Assembly (NCBI GenBank): GCA_035291085.1
Contig: DATDTA010000145.1
Coordinates: 193 to 64,192 of the forward strand
From: Candidatus Nanoarchaeia archaeon
Lineage (GTDB): Archaea > Nanobdellota > Nanobdellia > Woesearchaeales > GW2011-AR9
Direction of reading: 5' to 3'
Length of the DNA: 64,000 nt
Within the stretch, counting starts at the first letter, position 1. Every line of letters starts with the position of its first letter. The notes beneath the pieces were generated by a model, which saw nothing but the letters and a program-made list of their open reading frames with translations, was not told the DNA's origin and searched no databases. Both the position numbers and the translations under genes were made by a program. Positions 1 to 29,644 of the stretch are shown here, piece by piece.

Positions 1-918
1 TAATCGAGGTTTTTGTTCTTGATACATCCTTAGCCCACCACGGCAGATCGCCATCAACGGGTAAGCAGGACCCAAACCTCTATCAAGAGTTATACCTCCA
101 TCTCTAACAGCTTCTCCCACAGTTTCCTCAAGACCTGCAAAATTATCTTCAAGAAAGACGATCGGATGATGATCTCCAACATCAAGATTAGGAAACCCTG
201 CTGTAGTCACTGCTTTTTTTGCTGCTCTTCGGGCTTGACTTTTATCATTTGTTTCTTCAAAGATGCGATCATGCGCTTGAGAATAGATTGCATACGAAGT
301 ATCATAAATTACCTGCACCTGTGCAGCATCAAGCTTACTTTGGGCTAAGAATACTAAATTAATTCCCTGCGTAAATTCTGGATCAGTTTGATATCCTAAT
401 AGTCTTACATCTTCAAAATGATCAGCAGTAAGACCTATCTCTTCTGATGCTTCCGCGTACAATTGTTGAAATAAAGGATTGCCGGTTGCTCCTTCAGCCG
501 GAGCAGCTGCATAACCTAAAGGCATAAGGCTTACTTTTTCATTTTGTACAAAGCCCTGACGGACACCCACTAATATTCTTTCATCAGAGGTTCGCACAAT
601 TCCTTGTACTGTTAATGGTTTTAATCCTGATAAACCATGATCGCGAACCATCTGTGCATAATAACTCGTCGTAACACATAATTGAGCATCTGAGAAATCA
701 ATTTCCGCGGTATTTGAAGGAACCGCAAGAATATCTTCTTTCCACGGTTTGAGTTTAACTTTAGATTCATACAGTTCTATGTGTCTTTCCCATAAAGCTT
801 TCATTCCATCAGAACTGGGAATGAGTAGATGTACTTGGTCAGCACTCAAGGGCTGATCTAAAGCATACACTAATTGCGTTTTATCGTCACGTGTTTTCAA
901 TCCTATTTTTTGTACCAT
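1..918 (-). CDS. Partial CDS; 5' end in window and 3' end beyond position 1. Hypothetical protein, possibly a degenerate Nudix-like fold.
   Basis: My own translation of the minus strand gives an uninterrupted ORF of more than 300 codons. It starts at ATG 916-918 (MVQKIGLKTRDDKTQLVYALDQ...) and is preceded by a strong SD-like AGGTGGAG about 8 nt upstream. No stop codon occurs before the window edge. The segment ...PAEGATGNPLFQQLYAEASEEIGL weakly resembles a Nudix box. It is absent from the ORF track only because it runs off the edge. Confidence 0.5.
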   Translation of the reverse strand, partial: MVQKIGLKTRDDKTQLVYALDQPLSADQVHLLIPSSDGMKALWERHIELYESKVKLKPWKEDILAVPSNTAEIDFSDAQLCVTTSYYAQMVRDHGLSGLKPLTVQGIVRTSDERILVGVRQGFVQNEKVSLMPLGYAAAPAEGATGNPLFQQLYAEASEEIGLTADHFEDVRLLGYQTDPEFTQGINLVFLAQSKLDAAQVQVIYDTSYAIYSQAHDRIFEETNDKSQARRAAKKAVTTAGFPNLDVGDHHPIVFLEDNFAGLEETVGEAVRDGGITLDRGLGPAYPLMAICRGGLRMYQEQKPRL

Positions 919-983
919 GGTTTTCACTCCACCTAAAGAGGTTATAAAGATTATGATTTCTTATTCTACGTTATCCTGTGCTA

Positions 984-3239
984 TTATTCCTTGGTTACAA
1001 ACACTTCCTCGCCTTTCTGAAGAGCATCAATAATAAGTTGCGAGATCTCGGGACGCATAAACCAGTCGGGAGGAGCCTTACCCTCCTCAAATAGTTTTCG
1101 TGCTTCCGTACCGCTTATAGATAGTCTTGGTTCGGCAGGATCGAAAAAAGCATCTTCTTGCTGATGGCGCTGCTGTTTCTGTGAGTAAAGGACATTCTCG
1201 AACCTGACTGCTTTGATTCCTATTTCCGGAAAACGATCGAATATAGTCTGTGATGCTTTGGGGTGATAGAAACTTCCTACGCCAGTATGGTCTCTTCCTA
1301 CAATAAAATGGCTACAGCCAAAATTCTTTCTGCAGAGAGCAGTAAATAACGCTTCTCTCGGTCCAGCATAGCGAGAATAGGTACAGAACGTTCCAAAGAT
1401 AACTTTATTTTTAGGATAAAATTGTCTAATCATGATATCATACGCTTTAATGATCAATGATGCTTTAAAATCGCCAAGCTTTTTTTTACCAACAATAGGA
1501 TGTACTAAAAGACCATCACAATTCTCTAATTCCATCGCTTTAAGCTGTATAAACTCATGGCTACGGTGAATAACATTTCTGGTATGAAAGCCAACTACCT
1601 TCGCCCAGCCGCGGTCTTCGAATAATTTTCTGGTTTGCTGCGGAGTTAATTCATATTCCTTATGTTCCGAGTTTCTTCTTTTGATTAGATCTACTTTTCC
1701 AGCCAGTAAAACTGGTTGCATAGCTTTAACCATTCTCACCCCGGGATGTTTTTCATCTTCCGCACCATACATTTTCTGCATCATCTCGGTTTTATCAAAA
1801 GTATATTTCTCTTCAAGATGAAGAATCGCCATTATCTCGCCTTGTTGATTTAGCAGCGCTACATCTTGACCAATTGCAAGACGATCTGCCTCGTTCTGTG
1901 CTACATCTAGAATGATGGGTATCGGCCAGATCAGTCCATTGCTCAGCAACATATTATCTAAAACACCTTCAAAATCATTTTTGGTCATAAATCCTTCAAT
2001 GGGACTATATGTCCCCAGAGCAATTTGTTCGGCATCCATCTCTTGGGTTTCTGTAATCCTGATTTTCGGCAAGCTGTGCAGATACTCTGCCGGAAGAGGC
2101 GTTCTAACTACTCTGTTGACCAGCTTCCCGCCATGTGGGGTGATTAAAGAAGAGGAAATACCCGCATCAAGAAGATAATTTGCCTGTTCTAGATTTTGCA
2201 CAAATTTGTCTTCTTTGTCCTTAAAATCTTCAACATTTATTGCTAACTGTGAATGTTGGATTAATTTGTTGAGCATATTAATGCATTCCATGGGATATTT
2301 GCCAATCGCTGTTTCTGCAGCAAGAGTTAAGCCGCAAGCGCCATCCACTATAGTATTGAGAATATCATGGATTTCTGCACGAGTGGGCTTGCGCTTTTCA
2401 ATCATGGTTTCCAGCAGATTAGTAGCTACAAAAACTCCTTTTCCTTTCTTTCTCGCTTTGTTGATGATAATCTTTTGAGTAAAAGGAATTTTTTCTAGCG
2501 GAATTTCTTTGCTTAGGTCGCCGCGATCAACAAGTAAAAAGTCTGATTTCTTGATGATCTGATCAAGATTCTCCAAGGCATCAACACACTCTATCTTGGA
2601 AATGATCCGCATCGTATTTTGAGTTGCTCGTCTCACTTCATCAACAGCTGCGCCGGAACGCATAAATGAAGCAGCAATAAATCCTATTCCTTCTTGCAAT
2701 CCTATTTGAATACATTCATAATCCTTTTCTGATAAAGTGGGAAGAATAAATTTCTTTTGACTGGCAGAATCAACCGATACTGCTTTATTTCTGCCCAGAA
2801 CTCCAGAGGTGATAGCGCGAGCAGTGATATAACCCTGTTGTGCAGTGGAAACATCTGAGACGCGTAAGGTTAACGTATCAAAATCAACATAGATTAGATC
2901 TCCCGGTTCAAGCTGCTGCACGATATGTCCTGGCTTAAGACAAATTTTATCCTGGCTGCCCACAATAGTATCAGCATACACTTTTATTTCTTGGTTCTCC
3001 TCAAAAGCAATGCTGTTTTTGTCTAACTCACCAGTTCTGATCTGAGACCCTTCCGTATCGATGATGAAAGGAATGCCTACTTTTTTAGCCATCTGAATAA
3101 CATCCTTAAGATAATCCAAACTAGAATGAGACATATTTACCCTAACAAAATCCACCCCTTTATCCTTAATCTTCCGCAGCGATTCTTCATCACAGGTAGA
3201 AGGACCGATAGTAACGATTATTTTCACTTTTTTTTCCAC
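984..3239 (-). CDS. Bifunctional fusion: N-terminal pyruvate kinase barrel domain (about aa 1-345) joined to C-terminal sulfate adenylyltransferase (ATP sulfurylase, about aa 350-751).
   Basis: Pyruvate kinase motifs: IIVTIGPST, FVRVNMSHSS, FIIDTEGSQIRTG, LVDRGDLSKEIPLEKIPFTQKIIINKARKKGKGVFVATNLLETM. ATP-sulfurylase motifs: VVGFHTRNVIHRSHEFI (QTRN/HxxH type) and GCSHFIVGRDHTGVG (GRDHAG type). Confidence 0.8.
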   Translation of the reverse strand: MEKKVKIIVTIGPSTCDEESLRKIKDKGVDFVRVNMSHSSLDYLKDVIQMAKKVGIPFIIDTEGSQIRTGELDKNSIAFEENQEIKVYADTIVGSQDKICLKPGHIVQQLEPGDLIYVDFDTLTLRVSDVSTAQQGYITARAITSGVLGRNKAVSVDSASQKKFILPTLSEKDYECIQIGLQEGIGFIAASFMRSGAAVDEVRRATQNTMRIISKIECVDALENLDQIIKKSDFLLVDRGDLSKEIPLEKIPFTQKIIINKARKKGKGVFVATNLLETMIEKRKPTRAEIHDILNTIVDGACGLTLAAETAIGKYPMECINMLNKLIQHSQLAINVEDFKDKEDKFVQNLEQANYLLDAGISSSLITPHGGKLVNRVVRTPLPAEYLHSLPKIRITETQEMDAEQIALGTYSPIEGFMTKNDFEGVLDNMLLSNGLIWPIPIILDVAQNEADRLAIGQDVALLNQQGEIMAILHLEEKYTFDKTEMMQKMYGAEDEKHPGVRMVKAMQPVLLAGKVDLIKRRNSEHKEYELTPQQTRKLFEDRGWAKVVGFHTRNVIHRSHEFIQLKAMELENCDGLLVHPIVGKKKLGDFKASLIIKAYDIMIRQFYPKNKVIFGTFCTYSRYAGPREALFTALCRKNFGCSHFIVGRDHTGVGSFYHPKASQTIFDRFPEIGIKAVRFENVLYSQKQQRHQQEDAFFDPAEPRLSISGTEARKLFEEGKAPPDWFMRPEISQLIIDALQKGEEVFVTKE

Positions 3240-3310
3240 TTCTTTGACACCTCTAACAAAATATTCAAAGAAAAATTCCTTTAAAAGTCTTATGAAAGCT
3301 AATCATGCAA

Positions 3311-4099
3311 CTAGAGATGTATAAAGCGTTGTAAAGTTCCTTCATCCAGCCATCGGGTATACTTCTCATAATCTTCAACCGTATCAAATTCTAACCAGCC
3401 ACGATTAATGACTATCGGCTTCACTTCTTGTCCAGTATTGATCAGCGCCTGCAGCATGCAAGTCATGTATGCTTTCTTGAACGATTTGGATCTCAACCAT
3501 GGTTCATCTTTGTCAAAGCATTGCTGTTTATGATAGTGATAGACTTCCTTCAGTTTTTGCACTCCTTTTTTAGAAAATTTGATCAGGCCAACATATCTAA
3601 GCTGAGCCTTATCCCGAGCGCATTTTGTATCTCCTAACTCCACGATCTTCCCATCCTTGACTACCAAACTTTCCATGTCCTCTTCTGGCTTATCAGTTCG
3701 CGCGCACCAGTATTCCCAGTAATCTTGATCGACAGTAACTCCTACTTCTACTGGCGCATCAATAATAACCTGAAGAACTTTTGGCTCATAGATAACATCC
3801 GCATAGCAGACGAGAACATCTTCTTTTCCATCTAATTCTTTTTCAGCACAGAATAATGTCTCTACCATATTAGTGTTGGCAAAATCTGGATTACGATAAT
3901 ACTTCACTCCTTCAAGAGCTATCTTCTCCGGCTGATATCCTCGCACAATAGAGATGTCAGTAATTCCTGCCCTGCGTAATGTATCAACTTGCCGTTCAAT
4001 TAATGATTTTCCAGCAAAATTAAGCATGCATTTCGGAAGATTTTCGGTATACTTTCCTAATCGTGTTCCCATTCCGGCTGCAAGAATGATGGCTTTCAT
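3311..4099 (-). CDS. LicC-like phospho-alcohol/phosphonate cytidylyltransferase (sugar-phosphate nucleotidyltransferase fold).
   Basis: The N-terminus MKAIILAAGMGTRLGKYTENLPKCML... matches the G-x-G-T-R-L signature and the overall pattern of LicC-type CTP:phosphocholine (or 2-aminoethylphosphonate) cytidylyltransferases. Length is 262 aa. Confidence 0.65.
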   Translation of the reverse strand: MKAIILAAGMGTRLGKYTENLPKCMLNFAGKSLIERQVDTLRRAGITDISIVRGYQPEKIALEGVKYYRNPDFANTNMVETLFCAEKELDGKEDVLVCYADVIYEPKVLQVIIDAPVEVGVTVDQDYWEYWCARTDKPEEDMESLVVKDGKIVELGDTKCARDKAQLRYVGLIKFSKKGVQKLKEVYHYHKQQCFDKDEPWLRSKSFKKAYMTCMLQALINTGQEVKPIVINRGWLEFDTVEDYEKYTRWLDEGTLQRFIHL

Positions 4100-4184
4100 G
4101 CTATCTTGGATTGAGAATTTGATTTAAAATGTTATGTTTTTAGTTACGTAACCTTTATAAAATAACTATTGAAGTGATTATTTC

Positions 4185-5045
4185 ATGTATCTTCATCTTA
4201 TCAGGCATGGACCTAAGAACAATGACCCAAATGTTCATGGAACAGGAGTCGAAGCGCTGTTGGATCCTTCGCAATTGCATAAAATCGTTAATTATGGGAA
4301 ATATCTCCAGCAGAGAGCGGGACAAAGTAGATCTCAGCGAATTATTCTTGAAACTACTCCAGTAGAACGGGCAAAAGCAACAGCTGAAGTCTTGTATAGA
4401 ACTATGATTATACAACTTGAACCGGCTTTTAGTTATGTTAAGCCATCAGTAAATCCTTTAATTGGTTCTTATGCTTACGATGAACAAGGTAAGGCTGTAA
4501 ATTTAGGACCTCAAGCTATGTCCAAATTATGGGCAGAAGCTAAGAAATCAGAACATTGTAATCAATTCCAAGGAGAACACCAACCATTATACGCTTGGTG
4601 TGAGCAAGGATTTGATAATAAGCAAGCAAACAATCCTGCGGATCCTGGTATTTCACTGCGAGAAATATCCTGCAGAATAGGAACATATGTTTATCAGACT
4701 TTGCAAGAGAAAGAGAACCGCGACTTTATTACTGCAATCGGTCATTCGGGGGATATCGAACCGTTTCTATATCTATGCTTGGAAATGCTTGAGGGAAGAG
4801 ATGGAAGTAACCACGATGCATTAACTAGACATTTCAAAAAAACAAGGGGAGCTTTAGAACCATTAACTGGTATCGGCATTGCTTATGATCATTCAGACTT
4901 GTACCTTAGTCATCCATCGGAAAATTCCAGCAAGATGTTTAGAAAAAAAATAGGTATCGAATTATTCCAAGAGCAAGATAATTGGCTTAAAGAAAACGGA
5001 AGAAGTCAGCAAGTTCTTGAAAAGAAAATAGCTGGAGAGAAATAA
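4185..5045 (+). CDS. Histidine phosphatase superfamily protein (phosphoglycerate-mutase-like).
   Basis: N-terminal LIRHGPK (RHG catalytic motif) and a later GHSGDIEPF histidine motif. Confidence 0.55.
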   Translation: MYLHLIRHGPKNNDPNVHGTGVEALLDPSQLHKIVNYGKYLQQRAGQSRSQRIILETTPVERAKATAEVLYRTMIIQLEPAFSYVKPSVNPLIGSYAYDEQGKAVNLGPQAMSKLWAEAKKSEHCNQFQGEHQPLYAWCEQGFDNKQANNPADPGISLREISCRIGTYVYQTLQEKENRDFITAIGHSGDIEPFLYLCLEMLEGRDGSNHDALTRHFKKTRGALEPLTGIGIAYDHSDLYLSHPSENSSKMFRKKIGIELFQEQDNWLKENGRSQQVLEKKIAGEK

Positions 5046-5046
5046 A

Positions 5047-5487
5047 ATGAGTGATTGCGGATTATGTTCTGCTTACAATGAAGATTATAGGGTAGTTTTT
5101 AAGAATGAGAAAGCAGTTTCTTTGGTTATTGCTAACCCCTTTAACGACGGTCACTTGATGGTCCTTCCACGAAGGCACGTCATGACTTTGGATAACTTAA
5201 CCGCAGAGGAGTCAAAAGCACTGCATGAAATACTCTATGAAAGCCAAGAAAGGTTACTGGACGTATTTCCTGATTATCCTCCAGTATTGGGGATGCAAAC
5301 CGGGCGTCATTCTACGCAGCCGCACATTCATTACCAAATGTTTCCTAGTGATGCGCATCTTAGATTATTGTACGGAGCTGCTCATCCAACTGGGAGTTTA
5401 GAAGCAATAAAAGTTCCTCGGACGATTACTCATCCGGAGTATACTACTGAAAAATTGGAAGAAATTGCCAGACGCTTACGCGTCTAA
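5047..5487 (+). CDS. HIT (histidine triad) family nucleotide hydrolase/transferase.
   Basis: Cys-rich N-terminus (CGLCSAY), ...NDGHLMVLPRRH... and a C-terminal QPHIHYQMF histidine-triad-like motif. The start is 1 nt after the stop of the upstream phosphatase gene, which suggests translational coupling. Confidence 0.5.
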   Translation: MSDCGLCSAYNEDYRVVFKNEKAVSLVIANPFNDGHLMVLPRRHVMTLDNLTAEESKALHEILYESQERLLDVFPDYPPVLGMQTGRHSTQPHIHYQMFPSDAHLRLLYGAAHPTGSLEAIKVPRTITHPEYTTEKLEEIARRLRV

Positions 5488-5509
5488 ATTAAAATTTTTC
5501 TCTTTATAT

Positions 5510-6190
5510 TCACTTCTTCCACCATCCTTCTCCTTGTACAAACATCCTAACTAACTTCTCATTAAACACCATATCCGGACTTCTCCTCTCTGGATGCCAC
5601 TGTATTCCCACTAGAGGAAGAGAAGGGTGATAGAAACCTTCCACAATTCCCTCATCACTAACCGCAAACATACGCAGTTGAGGAGAAAGTTCCTTCTGAG
5701 TAAGCCCTTGATTGTGAAATGAGTTAACCATTACTTTACTCCCTAGAACATCTTGATCTGTAACTATATTCAGAGAATGATCTTTTCCTGACGGATGAGC
5801 GCCTTCACCTAAAACATCCTTTAGAACAACCAATTTCCCACCAAAATACACGTTCAAAAACTGCATTCCACGACAGATTCCTAAAAGCGGTATCTTCTTT
5901 TCCAAAGCTAATTCGATCATCCTCTTCTCAGTTGCGTCCCGTTCTGGAGCGATGGAGCTGTTCTCACTACGCTTCCCCCCATACAGCAGCGGATCAACAT
6001 CATTTCCTCCACTTAAAATAACCCGTTCAATCGGAAAATGTTTGAAATAATAATCAACATCTCCGCCATTAGGAATTAACAATAATTTCAACCCGAAAGT
6101 CTCAAAATAGTGTAAATATGCTTGCTCCAGTACACCAATAACATCGCCATGCTTGTTCTTTTCCTGCCGTATCGAAATAGTGCATAACAT
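5510..6190 (-). CDS. Class I glutamine amidotransferase-like / peptidase C26 (gamma-glutamyl hydrolase-like).
   Basis: LLGICRGMQFLNVYFGG (nucleophile Cys elbow) and IQWHPE (His-Glu of the triad). Confidence 0.7.
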   Translation of the reverse strand: MLCTISIRQEKNKHGDVIGVLEQAYLHYFETFGLKLLLIPNGGDVDYYFKHFPIERVILSGGNDVDPLLYGGKRSENSSIAPERDATEKRMIELALEKKIPLLGICRGMQFLNVYFGGKLVVLKDVLGEGAHPSGKDHSLNIVTDQDVLGSKVMVNSFHNQGLTQKELSPQLRMFAVSDEGIVEGFYHPSLPLVGIQWHPERRSPDMVFNEKLVRMFVQGEGWWKK

Positions 6191-6196
6191 TTTTTA

Positions 6197-9115
6197 TTAC
6201 CTCGGGATTATTTTTTGCGCTTTGCAGTCTAAAATGACCTGCTGCGCATTTTTAACCTGATTAAAAATCAAATCGCCGCAGCCGATAGCCGCTGGAATGC
6301 CAAATTCTGCGCATCTGATCGACATATGCGAAGCTACCCCACCATATTTAGTGATTAATCCTGCCGGATTTCGAGTAAATATCCAATCATAACCCGGATC
6401 ACCGTTTTCCAAAACTACTATGCAACCTTCCAAATTCGGAACAACCTTGTCCTGCAATTCAGTAATATTAACGATACTGCTTTCTATTTTCTTTTGTGTG
6501 ATAAAATTTGGTTTAGCCTGATAATGCTGAACAATTTCAAAATCTTGTTCAGAAAAAATAAGCGAGGGCAAAACCAGTTTGTCATTGATTGCTCTCTCTC
6601 GTTCTTGGATTTTAATTAATTTCTTCCAATCTTCCGAAACATTCTGGACATCAGTGGAAGAATTATTGATCTGGAAGATCTCATTAACATCAAGCATAGC
6701 TATTTCCTTCCTGGTAAAACCCATTGCTTCTCCGGCCTTAGCTAGTAATTCTAAAGCATCGCTTAAATTCTTAGTAAATTCAAATTTTGACAACTCTCTG
6801 GCTTGAGTAGCTTTTTCCACAAAGGCAAGAAATTGCGGCCCACCGCATTGCAATCCTTCTTGCTGTAGGGCAGCCGTTATCCGTTGGGTGATTTCATCAT
6901 TCAAATAAGAAATCTCTTTCTTCTCTTCATCTATGGGTAATGAAGTAGAAGCAAGTAAATGAGCAGCTGCATCATAGCGAGGACTAGTGATATCGTATGT
7001 TCCCGGGCGAAGATGATAATATTCTTGAATAAAATCCTGCTTAGAAATAACTCCTTTCATCAGTTTCTTGAAATCCTTACTAATGGTGGTAGCTACGGTG
7101 TTGATAGATTGATATTTTGCACCATAGAATTGTTGAGTGATAATACCTCGCTCAACTAAACTCTTTAAAATTATTTTTCCAATAAATCCTAACCGGGCTA
7201 ACCTCGAAAATTGCACCGTTCCTTTTTTCCGGCATTCATCCAGGAGAGTTTTACTGTACCCGATCAATTTTTGTGGATCACTTTCAGAAGCTATTTTTTG
7301 AGATGAAGATTTTCTTATTTCCTCCATGCTGAAAACAGTTTGCAGGTCAGTTTCAACCGTTTCCACGGAATTAGTGATGAGGTTATTAGTCAATTCCAGC
7401 AATGCTTCTTTTAACTCGGCAATCTCTTTAACAGTAAAGCCGGCTTCCAACAATTCACTAGACCGTTGATCAAAAGTAAGATCGTAGCAGGTATAAAGAA
7501 CTTCAAATTCCACTTTGTCCTGAAGATACGGATTTTTCCTGATTTTTTCCAAATAAAAAGAAGTCAATTTCTCTCGTAATTGGGCAGAGATTGCTGCCGG
7601 AGTAAAAGAATTAAAGGTATTACGTATATTTACGTAGGGCTTATTACCGAATAATTCGATCAGCTTTGCTGGTTGAACATTGTAATATCCTTGAGAAGTT
7701 CTTGCCTCATGCCAGGCACTATTGGTAATAAGATAATCATACAAAGAATAATCTAGAAAATTAGGGTTGTCTCCGATAATTTCCGCAGGGTTCCAATCAG
7801 GCATATCTCCAAAATAAGTAGTTTCCCCGCAAAGGTGGGGCTGCGGCTGGGCCAGAGTCTGGAATCTATCTTTTAGACAAATTATTTTTCTTTTTACTTC
7901 TTCATCATGTTTCTCCTTGTAGCGATTAGCAGCTAAAGGCCTGACCTGAAAAATGACTATTGACTTATCCTTTCGCATCGCAAATTCAATATCTAGGGGC
8001 ATTCCTGGAATGATCTCTTCGATCTCTTGCACTGCCTCCAGAAGAGTACCCATTTTTTCCGGTACTTTTTCGGCAAACCTACTTATCACTATTGATTTAT
8101 TTTCTCTTCCTGCAGTTACCGAATCAGTGCTTCCGGTAGTATCGTCATAGTTGATCACATAGTAAGAGCTGTTCTTTCCTAAAGTCCTGGTGAAAACCAC
8201 TCCGCTCATCACAATATCGGTAGTTTGCTGTTGCACCAGCATCTGGTTGAACGATGTTTCCGCATCCTTCTCTTTGTAAGAAAGCAATACTTTTGTAATA
8301 GCCATTTCAACATCTTTGGTATCGCCAGAGTTGACGTCAAGGACACTTTCAAAACATCCGGCCATGGAATGTTCTAAAGTATCTTCTTTCACCGCTGAGC
8401 TACGTACTACTATTTTTCCCGGAGAGAACTGCTCTTGGATTGCTGCTAGCACTTGCTGTTTTTGATTCTTCCAGTCAGAGATGGTAAAGCTATACAAAGG
8501 TTCAATAACTGACTTAGTAAGCAGAGGCTGCAAGGCTTTCAACGTATCTGCTTTAGAAGAGATGATGACTTTATTCCCTTTTTGCGCTTCTGCATCAAAG
8601 GTTCCTTTGTCTTTGATGTACGAGGTAAAATCAGCAATATCTTTGAATTTATCTTTATTGTCAATTAAATAATTGATTATCTTAAAATTAGAAAGCCGGC
8701 TGTAATAGGGGTGTTTTACAACTTGACCACCGATACTTCGTACATACTCTTCTCCAGGAACATAGTTAAGATCTTCGCCGTGCACTAAGATGATCTCCGC
8801 CTCGGGAAATTCTTCGTGTATCTTTTTTAAATTAGTGGTGCAATCTCTCTGATCCTGAATCATGACCCGGTCAACACAGCGTAAACTATCTACTATCGCC
8901 CTCCTTTCTTCAAGAGTTGAGATTGGTTTAACTCGGTATTCTTCGACCGCCTTATCAGTAATGACGCCGCAGATATTGTAATCAGATATAGATTTAGAGA
9001 ACTCTATGGAACGCAGATGCCCATAATGGAAAAAATCGCAGACTACGCCCAAGTATGCAATTCTTTTAGGCTTATTTTTTGTCTCTCGCTGAACCACCAT
9101 TTTACAAAACACCAA
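6197..9115 (-). CDS. Fusion: N-terminal cytidylyltransferase (TagD/ECT-like, HxGH) joined to a PPDK/PEP-synthase-type ATP-grasp nucleotide-binding domain and a C-terminal PEP-utilizing-enzyme mobile (phosphohistidine swivel) domain.
   Basis: N-terminus RIAYLGVVCDFFHYGHLRSIEF (HxGH cytidylyltransferase motif). The middle region resembles the PPDK N-terminal ATP-grasp fold. The C-terminus has GGVASHMSIRCAEFGIPAAIGCG (PEP-utilizers mobile His domain). The domain order ATP-grasp ... His-swivel matches rifampin phosphotransferase / PEP-synthase-like kinases. Confidence 0.75.
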   Translation of the reverse strand: MVFCKMVVQRETKNKPKRIAYLGVVCDFFHYGHLRSIEFSKSISDYNICGVITDKAVEEYRVKPISTLEERRAIVDSLRCVDRVMIQDQRDCTTNLKKIHEEFPEAEIILVHGEDLNYVPGEEYVRSIGGQVVKHPYYSRLSNFKIINYLIDNKDKFKDIADFTSYIKDKGTFDAEAQKGNKVIISSKADTLKALQPLLTKSVIEPLYSFTISDWKNQKQQVLAAIQEQFSPGKIVVRSSAVKEDTLEHSMAGCFESVLDVNSGDTKDVEMAITKVLLSYKEKDAETSFNQMLVQQQTTDIVMSGVVFTRTLGKNSSYYVINYDDTTGSTDSVTAGRENKSIVISRFAEKVPEKMGTLLEAVQEIEEIIPGMPLDIEFAMRKDKSIVIFQVRPLAANRYKEKHDEEVKRKIICLKDRFQTLAQPQPHLCGETTYFGDMPDWNPAEIIGDNPNFLDYSLYDYLITNSAWHEARTSQGYYNVQPAKLIELFGNKPYVNIRNTFNSFTPAAISAQLREKLTSFYLEKIRKNPYLQDKVEFEVLYTCYDLTFDQRSSELLEAGFTVKEIAELKEALLELTNNLITNSVETVETDLQTVFSMEEIRKSSSQKIASESDPQKLIGYSKTLLDECRKKGTVQFSRLARLGFIGKIILKSLVERGIITQQFYGAKYQSINTVATTISKDFKKLMKGVISKQDFIQEYYHLRPGTYDITSPRYDAAAHLLASTSLPIDEEKKEISYLNDEITQRITAALQQEGLQCGGPQFLAFVEKATQARELSKFEFTKNLSDALELLAKAGEAMGFTRKEIAMLDVNEIFQINNSSTDVQNVSEDWKKLIKIQERERAINDKLVLPSLIFSEQDFEIVQHYQAKPNFITQKKIESSIVNITELQDKVVPNLEGCIVVLENGDPGYDWIFTRNPAGLITKYGGVASHMSIRCAEFGIPAAIGCGDLIFNQVKNAQQVILDCKAQKIIPR

Positions 9116-9214
9116 ACGTGAAAGGAATGAAACCGTATTTAAAGGTGATGAAAAGAGGTTCTTTTAGGAAGTGGAACAAAACAAATTAAAAAAGTAGAAA
9201 AAATAAAACCGTAG

Positions 9215-18300: not shown

Positions 18301-20276
18301 TCAATCTCTTTTTGTAATCCACGTTCAAGCGAAACCGTTGGGAGATATCCTAACTCTTGTTGAGCTCTACTCACATCAAATCTGAAATTAACTTTCATCT
18401 TGGAACGTGGCTCAAACCGAATATTTACTTTTTCCCCGGATAGGGTAATAATTTTCTCTGCCAATTCCAAAATACTTACTTTTCGACCACTCGCTATGTT
18501 AAAAATACCTTCTTTCTTTTTTTCTAATGCGGCAATAACATACTCGGCGGCATCGGAGATGAATAGTACATCCCTAATGTCAGTTCCATCTCCATAGATC
18601 ACGGGATTTTCTCCTCGGAGAACGGCGCTAATAAAATTAGGTATGGCGCGCTCGATTTTCTCACCTGGCCCATAGATGTTCGTTAAGCGCAGAATTGTTA
18701 AAGCTAGTGCATTCCTTGCACTATATAACTGTAAGATATTTTCCGCCATCATCTTACTCATCCCATAATGTGATTTTGGATTAAGCGGATGATGCTCGAA
18801 CAGGGGCATCTCGGTAGGGCCATACACTTCACATGTGCTTAAATAAATGAAATGGGTATTCTTTGCTAGCGTCTCTACTAAGTTTATGGTAGCTACAAGA
18901 TTTCCATCCATACATCTCTTGAGATCATCCTCGGCAGCTTTTTTTGGGACATAGCCAGCACAGTGAATGACATGGGTAAACTGGGATAATGTCTTTGCCT
19001 GTGCAGCTACCTCTAATTTATTCGATAAATCACATACCATAAAAGGGGGAGAGTGTTGCTGTAAGAAGGCAGTGGCCTCTTCATTGCTGCCACGCAATAA
19101 TGCTGTTACGTCATACCCTCTTTCCTCCAGCGTTTTAAATAATTCTAATCCAATGTGTCCAGTTACACCCGTTACTAAAATTTTTTTCGATTGAGAATTG
19201 ATTCTCTGACGACGCAATTCCAAAGTAATCTCTGCTTCTTCAATTTTCTTGCTCGTTGTCAACACTGGAAGAAAGTCCATTCCTCGAATCCACACCAGAT
19301 CGGTGGGCAGGGGATTTATTCTCTTTTCAGGAGCAGTAACTGTTTCGCCAAATGCCATCTTTACAAAGAGGTAAGGCATATTCAATCCTGCCCGGGTAAA
19401 AAATTCGTGAGTAGTAAAGAAACGCCCGATATTTATCTCCGTTGGACAAGGAATGCCAGTATTGTCATAAGTTAAATCAACTGAAAAAATTCCATTTGGT
19501 TTCTTATCGATAGCAAAGACTGCTTTCATCGCGATATCATCTACGAGAGGATCACTCATCGTAACTCCCCCGCCGGTTGCACCAGTAACTCCTGACGGAG
19601 AAATCTTAGACAGCTCCCAGTACAATCGTTCCCGACCCTGAGCAACAACTAATTCCCCTTCATTCCAAATAGACATCCAGGTTACGGAGTTTGGTTCCAG
19701 GCATTCTGCCGCAGTATATTTCCCCCACCCCTCCTTAAAATCCAACCAAGATTTTGCTACTTTAAAGTCAGTTGCTGGTAATGAACCTCTGCCTCCAGCA
19801 CCGGTCGTATCACGCAACCAGATCTTATTCCCAAATTTTGCAAAAGCAAGTGTTAAATCATTTTCACCATTAATCAACATGGTCTTGGGTTGTTTAATCC
19901 CTGCTTCTTCCCATCTCTTATAAGATTCCAGTTTATTTAGACATATTCGCACCGTTTCTTTAGAAGGAAGAAAAAGCGCGATGGGAAGTTTCTCTCTGTT
20001 CTCAGAAATCGCTTCCATTTCCACATCATTTTGTATATGTAAAAATTCTGCTTTACTTTCCTTGATTATCTCAGATAGTACCTGAAAGTAATCGTGATCT
20101 AATGCTCCCGGAACCAGATGCCGTTCATCAGTTTCCGCTCGGTGGAGATAATACTTGCTTGAGTCTGTACCGATAATATAAAACTGTTCCGGAGCTGCTC
20201 TCAGGGAACGTATGAAATTTGCGGCAGGACTGCCTCCTGCCCCCGTAACCAATATTCTTTTCATTATACCTTGCAC
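18279..20276 (-). CDS. Fusion: ATP-grasp ligase domain (N-terminal, about 340 aa) joined to an NAD-dependent epimerase/dehydratase (extended SDR, C-terminal).
   Basis: The N-terminus RILVTGAGGSPAANFIRSL with an ATP-grasp-like central fold resembles PylC/carbamoyl-phosphate-synthase-type ligases found in sugar-modification loci. The C-terminus has KKILVTGVTGHIGLEL (Rossmann) and YGMSK (YxxxK). Confidence 0.65.
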   Translation of the reverse strand: MQGIMKRILVTGAGGSPAANFIRSLRAAPEQFYIIGTDSSKYYLHRAETDERHLVPGALDHDYFQVLSEIIKESKAEFLHIQNDVEMEAISENREKLPIALFLPSKETVRICLNKLESYKRWEEAGIKQPKTMLINGENDLTLAFAKFGNKIWLRDTTGAGGRGSLPATDFKVAKSWLDFKEGWGKYTAAECLEPNSVTWMSIWNEGELVVAQGRERLYWELSKISPSGVTGATGGGVTMSDPLVDDIAMKAVFAIDKKPNGIFSVDLTYDNTGIPCPTEINIGRFFTTHEFFTRAGLNMPYLFVKMAFGETVTAPEKRINPLPTDLVWIRGMDFLPVLTTSKKIEEAEITLELRRQRINSQSKKILVTGVTGHIGLELFKTLEERGYDVTALLRGSNEEATAFLQQHSPPFMVCDLSNKLEVAAQAKTLSQFTHVIHCAGYVPKKAAEDDLKRCMDGNLVATINLVETLAKNTHFIYLSTCEVYGPTEMPLFEHHPLNPKSHYGMSKMMAENILQLYSARNALALTILRLTNIYGPGEKIERAIPNFISAVLRGENPVIYGDGTDIRDVLFISDAAEYVIAALEKKKEGIFNIASGRKVSILELAEKIITLSGEKVNIRFEPRSKMKVNFRFDVSRAQQELGYLPTVSLERGLQKEIEWYNSKQ

Positions 20277-21346
20277 CTCTTTAGAATATCAACAATTTTA
20301 CTGCTGATAGCAGGATTCTGTAATTCCGTTTTCACAATCTTTCTCGATAATTGCTCCTCAGCAGCTTTTACTAAATCGCCAGTATTAGTTCCCACTAAAA
20401 ATGCCTTCCCTTGATCAATCAGCTCATGTAGTTCTGTTTTTTCCCGAGGAATAAGCGCAGGCACATTCAAAAAGGTCGCTTCTTCAAGCACCCCCCCAGA
20501 ATCTGTAATTACCACTGAACATTTTGACAACAAAGAAACAAACGCTGCATAACCTTGTGGTTCTAACACTTTTACCTTTGCTGAAAGCCGTATTTTATTT
20601 TCAGATAGAACTTTTTTTGTTCTGGGGTGAATGGGAAAAACTACGGAAGCTTTTTCAGATAAAATATTAAGTGCTTCAACGATATTCCGTAATCTGGCAG
20701 GATTATCAGTATTCTCAGCCCGATGAATTGTTACTAGAATATTCCCCTTACGTTCTGAAACTTCATCATCCGAAACTTCCACAAAAACATTTTTAGAAAC
20801 GTTGCTAAGAGTAATCGCCCGAAAACAAGCTTCTTCTACAATATTTCCTACATAAAAAATTTGTTCTTGTTTCAATCCTTCTTTTAGCAAATTATCTGTA
20901 CTTTCTGTATCGATGGTAAATAAGATATCAGCACAATGGTCAGCAACAATTCGGTTTATTTCTTCCGGCTGATATCTGTTTCTTGACCTGCATCCAGCTT
21001 CTAGATGAACAACTTTGCATCCTAATTTGCTTCCCACTACCGCAGCTGCCAGAGTAGAATTTGTATCTCCTAAGACTATCAGCAAATCAGGTTTTTCTTT
21101 CAACAATACTCTCTCCAGCTCTAACATGATTTTTCCGGTCTGCTCCCCATGCCTTCCAGAACCTACATTAAGATTATAATCCGGCTCACGAACCTGCAAC
21201 TCTTGAAAGAACATCTGGTCCATCTCCCAAGAATAATGCTGGCCGGTATGAACTAAGACCTGCTCAAATTCTGCATCAAGCAGAGGTATCAGTGGGGAAA
21301 GCTTAATAATCTCCGGTCTAGTTCCGAGAACAGTAACAACTTTCAT
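20264..21346 (-). CDS. UDP-N-acetylglucosamine 2-epimerase family (WecB/NeuC/LegG-like).
   Basis: MKVVTVLGTRPEIIKLSPLI is a hallmark N-terminus. Length is 360 aa. Confidence 0.85.
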   Translation of the reverse strand: MKVVTVLGTRPEIIKLSPLIPLLDAEFEQVLVHTGQHYSWEMDQMFFQELQVREPDYNLNVGSGRHGEQTGKIMLELERVLLKEKPDLLIVLGDTNSTLAAAVVGSKLGCKVVHLEAGCRSRNRYQPEEINRIVADHCADILFTIDTESTDNLLKEGLKQEQIFYVGNIVEEACFRAITLSNVSKNVFVEVSDDEVSERKGNILVTIHRAENTDNPARLRNIVEALNILSEKASVVFPIHPRTKKVLSENKIRLSAKVKVLEPQGYAAFVSLLSKCSVVITDSGGVLEEATFLNVPALIPREKTELHELIDQGKAFLVGTNTGDLVKAAEEQLSRKIVKTELQNPAISSKIVDILKRCKV

Positions 21347-22083
21347 AATTCTTTCCCAACCGTTTTGAAAACGACAATTCTTTTCATCAGATTGAGATGG
21401 CTTTTAATCGTGTTCAACAGCTTCATCTTAGAAACACCGAACTGTCGGACTCGCAAGGTGGCAGGAATCTCTTTAACTTTATATCCTTTCAGAACTGCTT
21501 TGATCAGAATTTCCGAAACATACAAAAAATTATTTGCTTCGCTGTGAACATTCTGCAAAACTTCTCTCTTATACACCCGCACCATTGCTCCATGAGTGTA
21601 GATTCCAGAATTCAGTAAATGCTTGTACATCATGGAAGAGCTCTTACTCAGGAAAATCCTCCAGGCCGGCACATTCTCCACTTTTCCCTGCGGATGATAC
21701 GGTGAGACAGTAACGATGTGAGTATCTTTATCAAGCAACCGCAACATCTCCGGCAGCAAAGAAAAAGGATAAGTACAATCACTGTCCCAGGTAGCGATGA
21801 GGCTTCCTTCGGCATGACTAAAACCAGTTTTCAAGGCCGCGCCTAAGTTCTGGTTCTTTTCATGCTTGATTATTTTAACTGCAGGATTACTTCCAAAGTG
21901 CTGATGAAGAAATTCATTTGTTTTATCAGTGCTTCCATCATCCACAAAAATAATTTCTGAGGCATATTTTGGCAGTAGGGAGGCTGTGACAGAAGCAAGC
22001 TGTTCTATCAGCTGCGGAATCCCCTCCTCCTCATTATAACAAGGGACTATAATAGAAAGGGTTTCTTTCTCTTTCAAAGCCAT
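21343..22083 (-). CDS. GT2-family glycosyltransferase.
   Basis: LSIIVPCYNEEEGIP, FVDDGSTDKT, WDSD. Confidence 0.75.
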   Translation of the reverse strand: MALKEKETLSIIVPCYNEEEGIPQLIEQLASVTASLLPKYASEIIFVDDGSTDKTNEFLHQHFGSNPAVKIIKHEKNQNLGAALKTGFSHAEGSLIATWDSDCTYPFSLLPEMLRLLDKDTHIVTVSPYHPQGKVENVPAWRIFLSKSSSMMYKHLLNSGIYTHGAMVRVYKREVLQNVHSEANNFLYVSEILIKAVLKGYKVKEIPATLRVRQFGVSKMKLLNTIKSHLNLMKRIVVFKTVGKEL

Positions 22084-22114
22084 AAATCTGCAAGAAATTT
22101 TTCCTTTAAAAGGT

Positions 22115-23110
22115 TTATGATACTATCTCTTTCTTTTTCTTCCAGAAAATCAGCAAGAGTGAACCTACTGCTACCAAAAGATAATACGCAACCATACGAT
22201 CGATAAGAATTGCGCTTTTAATTACCGGAGGATATGCTCCAGTCAACGAAGAAAGGATGTTGGCAGCAGAAAATTCCACTACTCCAATGCCTCCAGGAAT
22301 AGCTGAAAGAACTCCGATCAGCACCGAAGAACTGAGCACAAATCCTACTGCCATAAACGGCACAGAGACAGTTAAAAAATGTAATATGTACCACAGGCGT
22401 ATTATTTCCAAGATAATTGCCGCCACCGAAATAGCTGCAACAAGAATAAAACTTTTCTCATTAAAAGCAGTAAAGGAAGAGATTATTTGTTCGCACCATA
22501 ACGCTATTTTATCTCGGAAAGAAACTGGAAGAGGCAGCCGAGGTGCAGCTTTTTGCAACATTTTAAGAACCGACACCGGCGAAAGCAGCATCCCCGCAAT
22601 TAACAAGCATAATAACACCAGCAACATACGTATCTGTCCCTGGCCGGTCGCCCCATCAAGATGTACAAAAAATAATCCCAACACCAGAAAAATAAGAACA
22701 GAAAAAAGATCAAATAATCTCTCAATTAACATCAAGGGAAAAGACTTTGAGATTGGGATGTCAAAATCATGCTTTAAGAGGAGCGGCTTGCTCAGCTCGA
22801 TTCTACCGGGGATTAAACTGGCTGCAGCAACTCCCCCCAAGATGGATTTAAAAGAAAATAAAAAAGATATGTTCTCTCCAGAAGCCTTGGAAGTGAGAAA
22901 TTGCCAGCGATACGCCCGCAGGGAAATGCTCAAGATGGTTAACAAGAGAATAATAATTACTGAAGAAAATGTCAGCGAAGATAAGCTTTTTGAAATAGCT
23001 ACTAAATCTAGCGATTTTAAGAAAAAGATCAAGATAATCACGCCCAATAGAAACAGCAGATGTTTCAATCTGAACTTTTTCAGCAGCTCTTTCATAAGAT
23101 CAATGAACAA
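22115..23110 (-). CDS. Polytopic membrane protein; flippase-like (UPF0104 / lysyl-PG-synthase transmembrane-domain-like).
   Basis: Eight or more predicted hydrophobic helices, no catalytic motifs recognised, located between glycosyltransferase genes. Confidence 0.45.
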   Translation of the reverse strand: MFIDLMKELLKKFRLKHLLFLLGVIILIFFLKSLDLVAISKSLSSLTFSSVIIILLLTILSISLRAYRWQFLTSKASGENISFLFSFKSILGGVAAASLIPGRIELSKPLLLKHDFDIPISKSFPLMLIERLFDLFSVLIFLVLGLFFVHLDGATGQGQIRMLLVLLCLLIAGMLLSPVSVLKMLQKAAPRLPLPVSFRDKIALWCEQIISSFTAFNEKSFILVAAISVAAIILEIIRLWYILHFLTVSVPFMAVGFVLSSSVLIGVLSAIPGGIGVVEFSAANILSSLTGAYPPVIKSAILIDRMVAYYLLVAVGSLLLIFWKKKKEIVS

Positions 23111-23216
23111 AAGTAATTTATATAGTTTATGCTAAGGCTTGTGAAAAGGTTAGTGCCGCCTCAAAAAAGATTTCTAATCAATTACTTTTATAAAACAATT
23201 TTGAAGAAATCAATCT

Positions 23217-24689: not shown

Positions 24690-24737
24690 CCCCAAAAAAC
24701 GGATATTTTTATATAATCCCACTGTTCCCAATCATAG

Positions 24738-26723: not shown

Positions 26724-26762
26724 GTAGATAGTTTTAAAAATAATTAGTTTTTCTTTCAAAAT

Positions 26763-27800
26763 ATGGATATTTTAGCAAAAGCAATTCTCGATAGCCAACA
26801 AATCGAAGCACGTAAAAGACTAGGCGTCAAGGGTATCGAACTGCTTCTTCTTGACAAAGATTTTCGTGATCTTGACAAAACTAAAGAAGCCTTGATTCGG
26901 ATTGCTCAGGAATGGGAGATTGTCGCTTTAGAAGCTCCGGACAGCACCAAAGAATACCGCCTTAACCCTTTTTCCGCCGATAGTAAAACAAGAGTATCAA
27001 GTAGAGATTTTTTATTGAGATATGTAGAACTAGCTAACTCCGTAAACAACATCACAAAAAATATTGCCTACGCACAATTCCAATATATATTTGATGGATT
27101 CGATGATAAGGGCAGACCAGTAGAAGTTGATAGAGAAAGGCAATTGGGGGAGATTAGAGAACATTATGAAAGCTTAAGACGAAATTCCCAAGTAGAATTA
27201 CAAATAGAAAATATTACTCAAATTAATCCTGCCTACGCCGACGGTAGTTTGTGCCACTGTTATACCACTACGCGGCCGAGCGATTTCCCAATCATTGGAA
27301 CACCTTTAGCTCTAGACGTAATACACTTAGCCCAAGTTCTGTATACATGGTTAAAAACGGAACCGACGGATGAAGACAAAAACATCGCGAGAGTAAAGAT
27401 TCCCGGGATGCCGCAGTTCGGGGGAGGAGTGTACATTCAAATGACTGATGAGGACAAAAAAACTGCTGAGAGAATTAAGAAAGAACAAAAAGAAACTAAC
27501 CTCAGAGAAACAATTACTTCAGAGTTGGTTAGAGTCATAAACTTTTACAAGCCGCTAATCGGCTCACTGCAATTTGCTAATGCTAGCGTCGGCTTTGGAG
27601 CTTTTCCTGGAGAAGATGGTGTTGCCAGCGACACTGGACTGATAGATTTAAAACGAGTTTTCCAAGAAGCAATAATTCCGGCTAATGTTCCTTACGTAAT
27701 TCCCGAATATAGAGAAACTGATTGGCTTAATCCCCTTAACCAACAAAATGCCATTGCTATGGTAAGGAGATTATCTGAAGAATATTCTAAAAGAGAGTAG
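26763..27800 (+). CDS. Hypothetical protein, no recognisable domain.
   Basis: Clean 345-aa ORF with coding-like composition. I recognise no motifs. Confidence 0.5.
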   Translation: MDILAKAILDSQQIEARKRLGVKGIELLLLDKDFRDLDKTKEALIRIAQEWEIVALEAPDSTKEYRLNPFSADSKTRVSSRDFLLRYVELANSVNNITKNIAYAQFQYIFDGFDDKGRPVEVDRERQLGEIREHYESLRRNSQVELQIENITQINPAYADGSLCHCYTTTRPSDFPIIGTPLALDVIHLAQVLYTWLKTEPTDEDKNIARVKIPGMPQFGGGVYIQMTDEDKKTAERIKKEQKETNLRETITSELVRVINFYKPLIGSLQFANASVGFGAFPGEDGVASDTGLIDLKRVFQEAIIPANVPYVIPEYRETDWLNPLNQQNAIAMVRRLSEEYSKRE

Positions 27801-27803
27801 AGC

Positions 27804-28091: not shown

Positions 28092-28348
28092 CAGAAGAAA
28101 GAACCACTATAAAAAGATATCATGATCAGAGCTTAACAAAATTTAAAAAGCATCTAAAGAGAACTTTGAAAAATAGAGATTTTGCTAATTTTTTACTTGT
28201 TTAACAGGCAAAATCTCGACCATTTCAAAGTCTCTAAGATAATTTTGAATAGTGCTCAATAAAGCAACGACTTTATTGGCACATAAATGAAGTAGTTTCT
28301 TCATTTATAGTTTTTCAAAATTCTCTAAAGTAAAAATGTGCTGGATTT

Positions 28349-29629: not shown

Positions 29630-29644
29630 ATCAAAAAGTAAACT

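Follow-up and report, generated by a model that had tools for sequence, protein, structure and literature searches.

Phosphoramidate decoration, which carries a phosphorus-nitrogen (P-N) bond, has so far been treated as a peculiarity of Campylobacter (PMC3907429). In the O-methyl phosphoramidate (MeOPN) pathway of C. jejuni, L-glutamine is phosphorylated on its amide nitrogen by Cj1418 (EC 2.7.3.13), a kinase resembling phosphoenolpyruvate (PEP) synthase and pyruvate phosphate dikinase (PPDK) (PMC6429109, PMC6482885), and the set Cj1418/Cj1417/Cj1416 converts Gln, ATP and CTP to cytidine diphosphoramidate (CDP-amidate; PMC11800397). In phosphonate biosynthesis, PEP mutase, the first committed enzyme, is found fused to nucleotidyltransferase domains of family PF12804 (33%), of PF01467 (23.6%) or of both (2.9%), and the fused cytidylyltransferase (CyTase) of Fom1 acts on the downstream intermediate hydroxyethylphosphonate (HEP), not on the mutase product (PMC6697681). 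The subject here is a gene on the minus strand (6197..9115) of a 64,000-nucleotide stretch of contig DATDTA010000145.1 from a Candidatus Nanoarchaeia archaeon, the whole of which is called the window below; in this gene a PF01467 domain with an HxGH motif is joined to a phosphohistidine kinase. The product is probably a two-module enzyme, a glutamine kinase carrying an extra HxGH cytidylyltransferase, that serves a CDP-amidate (P-N bond) pathway of surface decoration in a DPANN archaeon.

The open reading frame (ORF) was verified, and its listed TTG start probably lies five codons too early. Translated from the ATG at 9100, the product shows 100% identity, across 100% of its length, to the database entry P0001, named by NCBI 'PEP-utilizing enzyme [Candidatus Nanoarchaeia archaeon]', and a TATA-like TTTAAATA is located ~35 nt upstream of this ATG. 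The original prediction had read the gene as an HxGH cytidylyltransferase followed by a PPDK-type kinase with a swivel histidine domain, and the Pfam scan bore this out, detecting CTP_transf_like (PF01467; aa 27-116, E 5.8e-11, 43.2 bits), PPDK_N (a partial match; E 1.8e-13, 51 bits) and PEP-utilizers (aa 896-965, E 2.6e-14, 53 bits) above their gathering cutoffs of 21, 27 and 23 bits, respectively. The FHYGH motif occupies aa 24-28, with H25 at 9026..9028 and H28 at 9017..9019, and the swivel motif GGVASHMSIRCAEFGIPAAIGCG is present, with His925 (6326..6328) falling within GGVASHMSIRCAEFG.

Structure prediction agrees with this architecture. In an AlphaFold (AF2) model built on 20 homologues (mean predicted local distance difference test score, pLDDT, 82; predicted template modelling score, pTM, 0.71), aa 9-132 fold into a compact Rossmann domain, which a tether of low confidence (aa 133-180) connects to a large body of three domains. 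In Foldseek the fold of the kinase body is closest to rifampin phosphotransferase (RPH; 5fbs, E 5.5e-21, 13% identity), and its ATP-grasp domain matches the ATP-binding domain of RPH (5hv6) as well as ATP-grasp ligases. The central domain, placed where RPH has its rifampin-binding domain, is presumed to bind glutamine as the acceptor. His925 is invariant in 20 fused homologues and the equivalent His in 12 diverse fused and unfused homologues; with no loss of the catalytic His on alignment, the phosphohistidine mechanism class foreseen for the kinase stands.

The kinase body can be placed with good confidence in the L-glutamine kinase family of Cj1418 type, acting in a CDP-amidate pathway. The NCBIfam model NF004508 (PRK05849) covers it end to end, aligning aa 179-970 with positions 5-786 of the 789 in the profile, and scores 841 bits where the cutoff is 501; an unfused kinase from a four-gene bacterial cluster of canonical type reaches 934 bits. 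This 'equivalog' model is still named 'hypothetical protein', and the link to glutamine kinase comes through JGI, which labels several close HxGH-fused homologues, plus an unfused relative, 'glutamine kinase'. NCBIfam, these JGI names and a canonical four-gene locus on an Azospirillum plasmid served as the proxy for the Cj1418-type pathway; that locus (L006) encodes an unfused kinase, a Peptidase_C26 (C26) protein, a LicC-like protein, an adenylyl-sulfate (APS) kinase-like protein and methyltransferases, and so the full Cj1415-1418 set.

Two further members of such a set are encoded beside the kinase in the window. The C26 gene has gamma-glutamyl-CDP-amidate hydrolase (NF045546) as its top NCBIfam match, at 88.7 bits and below the equivalog cutoff of 250, and the same model is the top match of the C26 genes in bacterial Azospirillum and Vibrio plasmid clusters (103 and 127 bits). 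The LicC-type gene, best matched in the PDB by LicC (1jyk), shares 31-39% identity over its full length with the LicC-like genes of the Azospirillum and Vibrio clusters. Its identity had been recognized correctly in the original prediction, as PF12804/PF00483 and 1jyk confirm, but it had been cast as a parallel activity; it corresponds instead to the canonical cytidylyltransferase of the pathway, which leaves the HxGH domain of the fusion as an additional module.

By analogy with its family, the ATP-grasp domain would move a phosphate from ATP to His925, and the swivel domain would carry it to the central domain. Following the characterised pathway, phospho-His925 would phosphorylate the amide N of L-Gln to give N5-phospho-L-Gln, AMP and inorganic phosphate, the LicC-type enzyme would consume CTP to form CDP-L-glutamine, and the C26 hydrolase would free glutamate to leave CDP-amidate. 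The general logic proposed earlier, in which a kinase yields X-P, a cytidylyltransferase CDP-X, and a surface-decoration cluster uses the product, holds. X itself, once taken for a small alcohol, is very probably not one, given the full-length NF004508 match, the JGI names and the C26 and LicC-type genes that always accompany the kinase. Since a Cj1418/Cj1417/Cj1416-type set makes CDP-amidate, X-P would be N5-phospho-L-glutamine, and the suggested headgroup route of CDP-choline or CDP-inositol kind gives way to a pathway that makes a P-N bond.

The HxGH module, of the Fom1/TagD class and held on a flexible tether, would add a second nucleotidyl-activation step and would not replace the Cj1416-type enzyme. 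The domain is likely to be active and non-redundant. In Foldseek it is closest to the CyTase domain of Fom1 (5x3d; template modelling (TM) score 0.83, root-mean-square deviation 2.4 A, 27% identity), followed by HldC, TagD-type GCT and ECT, with TM scores of 0.78-0.79 for 2b7l and 0.75 for 5xf2; sequence-level PDB matches likewise place the Fom1 CyTase nearest, with ECT, GCT and CCT also similar. Over 167 distinct domain sequences, whose identity to the window's domain has a minimum of 29% and a median of 49%, conservation reaches 0.99 at H25, 1.00 at G27, 0.95 at H28, 0.95 at E65, 1.00 at R66 and 0.99 at D77, then 0.97 at Q82, 0.89 at D86, 0.92 at N90 and 0.95 at L91, with Y132, Y133, L136 and S137 at 0.87-0.95. 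The resulting Q..D..NL and PY..S motifs agree with 'VVPQRTLDYAENL' and 'PYTPGISSS' of Fom1. In CCT/GCT-type enzymes a Lys binds the substrate phosphate and the canonical C-terminal motif reads RTEGISTT; 'PYYSRLSNF' in the linker region is the divergent counterpart of the RTEGISTT helix and resembles PYTPGISSS of Fom1.

The LicC-type genes in HxGH-type loci are clear orthologues of the bacterial LicC-type genes and retain ILAAGxGTRL..PK, and the idea that the HxGH domain substitutes for a decayed LicC-type enzyme was rejected for their intact catalytic motif. Because an intact Cj1416-type gene coexists with it, the HxGH domain is read as an additional, non-redundant nucleotidyl-transfer module, and the long retention of both nucleotidyltransferases in reduced DPANN genomes argues against redundancy. 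The favoured substrate would be a later P-N intermediate, or a group passed to the CDP-alcohol phosphotransferase, over phosphoglutamine; a different phospho-compound is preferred because of the Fom1 precedent and this non-redundancy argument.

HxGH-type clusters are a distinct variant, because their neighbour-family counts differ from those of unfused and APS-kinase-fused loci. Neighbours were counted with custom hidden Markov models over ~10 kb on each side in 17 HxGH-type loci (at least 4 kb available on both sides), 50 unfused loci and 21 APS-kinase-fused loci, numbers that are small and confounded with taxonomy. A search for the architecture with its neighbouring genes, suggested along with the original prediction, found C26 and LicC-type genes in 17/17 HxGH-type loci, the window included; C26 also occurred in 46/50 unfused and 17/21 APS-kinase-fused loci and LicC-type genes in 47/50 and 20/21. 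CDP-OH_P_transf (9/17), Sat-type ATP sulfurylase (7/17, four of them with a pyruvate kinase (PK) domain) and HIT genes (4/17) were counted in HxGH-type loci and in 0/50 and 0/21 of the other two classes. TagF-like genes were found in 3/17, 9/50 and 0/21 loci, and CysDN in 1/17, 1/50 and 0/21. APS kinase accompanied 6/17 HxGH-type loci, compared with 34/50 unfused and 21/21 APS-kinase-fused loci (55/71 for the latter two together), and the Azospirillum-type methyltransferase 0/17, compared with 27/50 and 19/21. Methyltransferases like that fused to the His_Phos_1 domain in the window were present in 11/17 HxGH-type loci.

Two readings of these counts did not hold. That the HxGH domain feeds the CDP-alcohol phosphotransferase was suggested by an early count of 7/11 vs 0/71, and was weakened by three bacterial HxGH-type loci (L100, L172, L173) and the contig of P0434, all without a CDP-OH or TagF gene. 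As none of the three high-GC bacterial loci contains CDP-OH_P_transf, its association is probably specific to the DPANN lineage and not tied to the HxGH domain. These three loci encode an SGNH-like protein of ~420-455 aa and a methyltransferase of ~350 aa, L172 also a sulfatase-family protein, and the P0434 contig has two sulfatase-family genes and no CDP-OH transferase. That CDP-X transferases replace the APS-kinase step was dismissed in the absence of any anticorrelation, as 9/9 unfused TagF-like loci have APS kinase and five HxGH-type loci have both.

With the kinase part alone as query, 4,343 representative clusters (50% identity) were retrieved at a threshold of E <= 1e-3, and 1,534 when it was tightened to E <= 1e-30. 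A scan of GTDB species genomes found the family in at least 582 species; the best 80 loci are all bacterial and from many phyla, and no Campylobacter was among these 80. Custom profiles divided the 150 nearest kinase representatives into 61 unfused proteins, ~55 with an N-terminal LicC-type domain, 30 with an HxGH domain, two with an N-terminal APS-kinase domain and two with a C-terminal Peptidase_C26 domain, and among 167 loci there were 29 APS-kinase-kinase fusions and two APS-kinase-HxGH-kinase fusions. APS-kinase-glutamine-kinase fusions (29 loci, L010, L012, L015 and others) are common in Acidobacteriota and other bacteria, and glutamine-kinase-Peptidase_C26 fusions are rare (P0193, P0242). 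As the kinase is fused to each of three other pathway enzyme types, there is independent Rosetta-stone evidence that the family, HxGH domain included, belongs in the pathway. In a neighbour-joining tree of kinase domains, built without bootstrap, HxGH-fused kinases fall in one clade (35 of its 48 leaves) and LicC-type-fused kinases in another (56 of 65 leaves).

LicC-type-extended kinases make up about one third of the nearest representatives (P0156-P0266; L005 on Vibrio alfacsensis pYa108, 8443..11343; L167), and their loci retain a separate intact LicC-type gene. The GxGxR nucleotide-binding signature is lost from the extension in 53 of 55 representatives, and L167, one such locus, still encodes separate C26, NTP-transferase and APS-kinase proteins; the extension is apparently a degenerate accessory domain, an apparent pseudo-enzyme module. 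Grouped at 90% identity, proteins of the HxGH-type architecture form at least 120 clusters, a number of which bear the name 'glutamine kinase', with named members from Woesearchaeota, Nanoarchaeota/Nanoarchaeia and Diapherotrites. A bacterial minority comes from metagenome-assembled genomes (MAGs) of Acidimicrobiia and Ca. Tectomicrobia (L100, L172 and L173, 62-66% GC). The occurrence of the HxGH fusion with its C26 and LicC-type partners in these high-GC bacterial MAGs, in L100 also with PK and ATP-sulfurylase, suggests that the cluster has been transferred between bacteria and DPANN archaea.

Competing explanations concern the kinase and the HxGH domain in turn. A PEP synthase, a PPDK or a rifamycin-type antibiotic phosphotransferase with an unrelated fused domain would accord with NCBI source names, which include 'PEP-utilizing enzyme', and with the fold nearest to rifampin phosphotransferase; it is nevertheless extremely improbable, since the equivalog models for PEP synthase, PPDK and RPH reach 22-65 bits where their cutoffs are 456-1063, the PEP/pyruvate-binding TIM-barrel domain is missing (no PEP-utilizers_C in Pfam), identity to RPH is 13-14%, and the conserved gene context consists of glutamine-pathway genes. 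The scheme proposed originally, in which the kinase phosphorylates a small alcohol X, the HxGH domain forms CDP-X and the CDP-alcohol phosphotransferase installs X in a Kennedy/LicC-like manner, is very improbable as well. It has to explain a kinase body that is a full-length member of a family annotated as glutamine kinase, a gamma-glutamyl-amidase-type C26 gene that is always adjacent and would have no role in an alcohol route, and bacterial HxGH-type loci without CDP-OH_P_transf, although the resemblance of the HxGH domain to ECT, GCT and CCT and a CDP-OH_P_transf gene that runs in operon direction in the window and recurs in 9 of the 17 loci would suit it.

With glutamine kinase kept as the function of the body, the enzyme might be bifunctional, its kinase making N5-phospho-L-glutamine and its HxGH domain converting this with CTP to CDP-L-glutamine, so that a labile intermediate is channelled and the LicC-type enzyme has another or a back-up role. 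The domain is covalently joined to an enzyme that makes a phospho-substrate, HxGH cytidylyltransferases use small phosphomonoesters and phosphonates, the catalytic residues are conserved, and bacterial relatives have a LicC-type domain homologous to Cj1416 at the identical N-terminal position. Against this stand the intact Cj1416-type gene in 17/17 loci, reduced DPANN genomes included, which argues against redundancy, the mostly degenerate state of those bacterial LicC-type domains, so that their position does not imply catalysis on phosphoglutamine, and the fused CyTase of Fom1, which does not act on the direct product of its partner domain; such channelling is therefore regarded as doubtful. 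A non-catalytic HxGH domain, serving as nucleotide sensor or docking module, for example in feedback by CTP or CDP-amidate on an ATP-costly kinase or as a scaffold for the LicC-type enzyme, is quite unlikely: HxGH, ER and D are 95-100% conserved in sequences down to 29% identity, an active-site pattern, though a role in binding only would also conserve some of these residues. In its favour, the bacterial LicC-type extension illustrates that accessory non-catalytic modules exist beside a full set of separate enzymes, and the HxGH domain has a divergent third motif and lacks conservation of the canonical substrate Lys. As to what the domain acts on, a compound other than phosphoglutamine is tentatively put first, by analogy with Fom1; phosphoglutamine has a real, if less than even, chance, and a purely regulatory domain is unlikely.

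The reading as a glutamine kinase with an extra cytidylyltransferase has several points against it. The family was assigned through a profile and names, not through the characterised Cj1418, Cj1416 and Cj1417 sequences, with NF004508 itself carrying an uninformative name, the C26 score lying under its cutoff and the neighbour statistics being those of short flanks, custom models and few loci. In the HxGH domain, the Lys of 'RVKP', counterpart of the substrate-phosphate Lys of CCT/GCT, is less than 60% conserved, the RTEGISTT motif is divergent, and the AF2 model has no confident inter-domain interface. The in silico evidence singles out no HxGH substrate, and phosphoglutamine is favoured by the direct fusion to the kinase and by the LicC-type domain that occupies this position in bacterial relatives. 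No APS-kinase (Cj1415-type) homologue is encoded anywhere in the 64-kb window, and therefore the end product may differ from MeOPN. A more far-reaching proposal, rather unlikely as it stands, is that HxGH-type clusters constitute a distinct, APS-kinase-independent phosphoramidate branch, in which the Fom1-like module would attach a CMP handle to a further intermediate of P-N or P-O type and a CDP-alcohol phosphotransferase or TagF-like enzyme would install CDP-activated groups (CDP-amidate or the second compound) on archaeal glycans or lipids. The recurrent sulfate-activation and HIT genes may feed the same P-N chemistry.

Table 1. Features of the fusion gene and of the neighbouring genes in the window.
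Feature	Position	Strand	Basis and remarks
Fusion gene, HxGH cytidylyltransferase-like domain + glutamine-kinase-family body	6197..9100	-	967 aa + stop, from ATG 9100
N-terminal HxGH (PF01467) Rossmann domain, aa 9-132	8705..9076	-	Pfam, PDB matches, conservation over 167 sequences
Low-confidence linker, aa 133-180	8561..8704	-	AF2 pLDDT <50; alignment to Fom1 'PYTPGISSS'
ATP-grasp (PPDK_N-like) nucleotide-binding domain, ~aa 181-420, boundary approximate	7841..8560	-	Pfam; Foldseek
Central, mostly helical domain, ~aa 421-850	6551..7840	-	AF2 secondary structure; 5fbs/5hv1 whole-chain match; within NF004508
PEP-utilizers swivel phosphohistidine domain, aa 851-967, catalytic His925	6200..6550	-	Pfam; His invariance
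Peptidase_C26/class-I glutamine amidotransferase (GATase), Cj1417 type (gamma-glutamyl-CDP-amidate hydrolase-like)	5510..6190	-	Pfam; starts 6 nt past fusion stop
LicC/MobA-type NTP transferase, Cj1416 type (phosphoglutamine cytidylyltransferase-like)	3311..4099	-	PF12804/PF00483; ILAAGxGTRL..PK intact
His_Phos_1 phosphatase + class-I S-adenosylmethionine (SAM) methyltransferase fusion, directly upstream of kinase fusion	9215..10609	-	Pfam
CDP-alcohol phosphotransferase, membrane; candidate transferase for CDP-activated group	10704..11384	-	Pfam CDP-OH_P_transf
PK barrel + PUA_2 + ATP-sulfurylase fusion, 751 aa, downstream of LicC-type gene	984..3239	-	Pfam/NCBIfam; membership in system uncertain
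HIT-family protein	5047..5487	+	Pfam; membership in system uncertain
286-aa ORF with histidine-phosphatase-like motifs only	4185..5045	+	LIRHG, TPxxRAxxTA, GHSG in histidine-phosphatase order
Fic/DOC-family protein	13660..14556	+	
B12-binding radical-SAM protein	30915..33011		

The window is a surface-glycan island that includes glycosyltransferases, a flippase, sugar-nucleotide enzymes, a carbamoyltransferase and a B12-radical SAM enzyme (Table 1). The CDP-alcohol phosphatidyltransferase named in the original prediction was recovered by Pfam. Of the two histidine phosphatases named there, one is a phosphatase in one half, its SAM-methyltransferase half having been overlooked, and it is the sole such fusion among the HxGH-type loci surveyed. 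The other, the 286-aa ORF, has no Pfam, NCBIfam or PDB match and has homologues in two loci only (L089, L147). Its assignment as a histidine phosphatase was dropped: no profile matches, an hhalign comparison with the His_Phos half of the fused gene gave a probability of 0.4%, and its single-sequence AF2 model (pLDDT 36) is uninformative, leaving motif-level hints alone. The C26, HIT and PK-ATP-sulfurylase genes had gone unmentioned. A Fic/DOC-family gene lies within the glycan island on the strand opposite to the cluster, and ARAGORN detected no tRNA or tmRNA gene in the 64 kb (1..64000).

Sulfate activation in three forms (PK-Sat, Sat and CysDN), often with HIT, is found inside 8/17 HxGH-type clusters vs 1/71 unfused or APS-kinase-fused bacterial ones. 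Examples are the window itself, L003, L111, L168, L169 and L170, and it also stands beside the Vibrio LicC-type-fused cluster (L005); the HIT gene adjoins the ATP sulfurylase in L003, L111 and L169. At least 120 protein clusters, most of them from Woesearchaeota and Nanoarchaeota, have the PK + PUA_2 + ATP-sulfurylase fusion. Some variants are extended by a C-terminal APS kinase (P0342, P0344, P0346, P0364) or, in P0311, by an N-terminal LicC-type NTP transferase, the two corresponding genes being adjacent in the window.

Unbiased ORF clustering over the HxGH-type loci brought out two more families, neither universal in, nor specific to, such loci. An SGNH/GDSL-like family of ~350-460 aa with a GDSFIFG motif and no Pfam match lies beside the core in 8/17 HxGH-type and 5/50 unfused loci (L001 8949..10004; L089 8335..9726; L100 14212..15489; L172 14505..15767; L173 14402..15769), and the window has no member within its first 22 kb. 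Two paired genes of ~235 aa, one formyltransferase-like and one with no assignment, follow the LicC-type or APS-kinase gene in archaeal HxGH-type (5/17) and bacterial clusters (L003 14386..15794; L169 14506..15938; L170 16239..17668; L167 13178..14619). B12-binding radical-SAM proteins are also encoded repeatedly in the vicinity of HxGH-type clusters, both in the window and in L003 (18390..21251), L171 (17617..21310) and L173 (from 22058). In fosfomycin biosynthesis the B12-binding radical-SAM enzyme Fom3 acts on the cytidylylated intermediate supplied by the CyTase domain of Fom1.

The pathway is known, and the fused form and the role of its extra HxGH module are apparently undescribed in the literature searched. 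No description of an HxGH-glutamine-kinase fusion was found in that literature, which left out most subscription papers, so that a prior mention is possible; the earlier remark that no description of the fusion had been seen agrees with this as far as papers go, but the architecture itself is abundant in databases. The main interest lies in an unexplained, conserved second nucleotidyltransferase and in the breadth of a very large and modular glutamine-kinase family, whose kinase is fused, in some lineage, to every other enzyme type of the pathway. The HxGH-fused form predominates among DPANN archaea, organisms whose episymbiotic lifestyle is mediated by their cell surfaces, and if the APS-kinase-independent branch were true, P-N-decorated cell surfaces would be common among them. 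Finding the substrate of the HxGH domain would establish a step or a product new to natural P-N chemistry, and the fusion protein is a compact, directly assayable target, as its substrates (ATP, CTP and L-Gln) are known or guessable. The joining of the first committed P-N enzyme to a second nucleotidyl-activation module parallels the phosphorus-carbon (P-C) pathways of phosphonates.

Compared by profile, not by the Cj1418 sequence, the kinase of the window and Cj1418 of the C. jejuni MeOPN system have NF004508 in common over the entire kinase body, together with the ATP-grasp, central and swivel-His architecture and its conserved His. Like Cj1416 and Cj1417, a LicC-type cytidylyltransferase and a C26 hydrolase are encoded next to the kinase within a surface-glycan island. 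The window's protein differs from Cj1418 in its archaeal (DPANN) origin and its additional N-terminal HxGH domain of ~170 aa, and the locus differs from Cj1415-1418 in lacking the Cj1415-type APS-kinase homologue, so that it does not amount to a complete Campylobacter-type MeOPN system; it has instead the CDP-alcohol phosphotransferase, the His-phosphatase-methyltransferase, HIT and PK-ATP-sulfurylase. A TagF-like nature of the MeOPN transferases Cj1421/22 found no support in the paper checked. A putative MeOPN cluster on Borg elements of Methanoperedens (bioRxiv 10.1101/2024.11.05.622173) is likewise archaeal-associated and combines a glutamine kinase, a gamma-glutamyl-CDP-amidate hydrolase and two cytidylyltransferases in a glycoconjugate region. 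Its roles are predicted from structure alone, its kinase is described without an HxGH fusion, and its second cytidylyltransferase is fused to a PEP-mutase domain.

RPH (RPH-Lm, 5fbs/5hv1), PEP synthase and PPDK have the three-domain fold and the phosphohistidine swivel mechanism class in common with the window's kinase. RPH differs from it in its central acceptor domain, and NF041857 gives 22 bits against a cutoff of 999; for PEP synthase and PPDK the equivalog scores are 26-65 bits against cutoffs of 456-1063. Kennedy and LicC-type routes (CDP-choline, CDP-ethanolamine, CDP-glycerol with TagD/TagF, CDP-inositol with IPCT/DIPPS) likewise combine, within a cluster, an HxGH or LicC-type cytidylyltransferase with a TagF-like transferase or a CDP-alcohol phosphotransferase, but the window's kinase does not belong to the choline, ethanolamine or polyol kinases, and its obligatory C26 amidase indicates a glutamine-derived P-N intermediate. 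The closest parallel to the fusion itself is Fom1, the nearest match of the HxGH domain in both structure and sequence, with shared Q..D..NL and PY..S motifs. In both proteins an N-terminal CyTase is joined to the first committed enzyme of a pathway for a rare phosphorus bond, the partner in the window being a P-N-forming phosphohistidine kinase instead of a P-C-forming PEP mutase, which the cluster lacks. PEP mutases and the glutamine-kinase family have the same two alternative fusion partners, a LicC-type (PF12804) or a PF01467 domain (PMC6697681).

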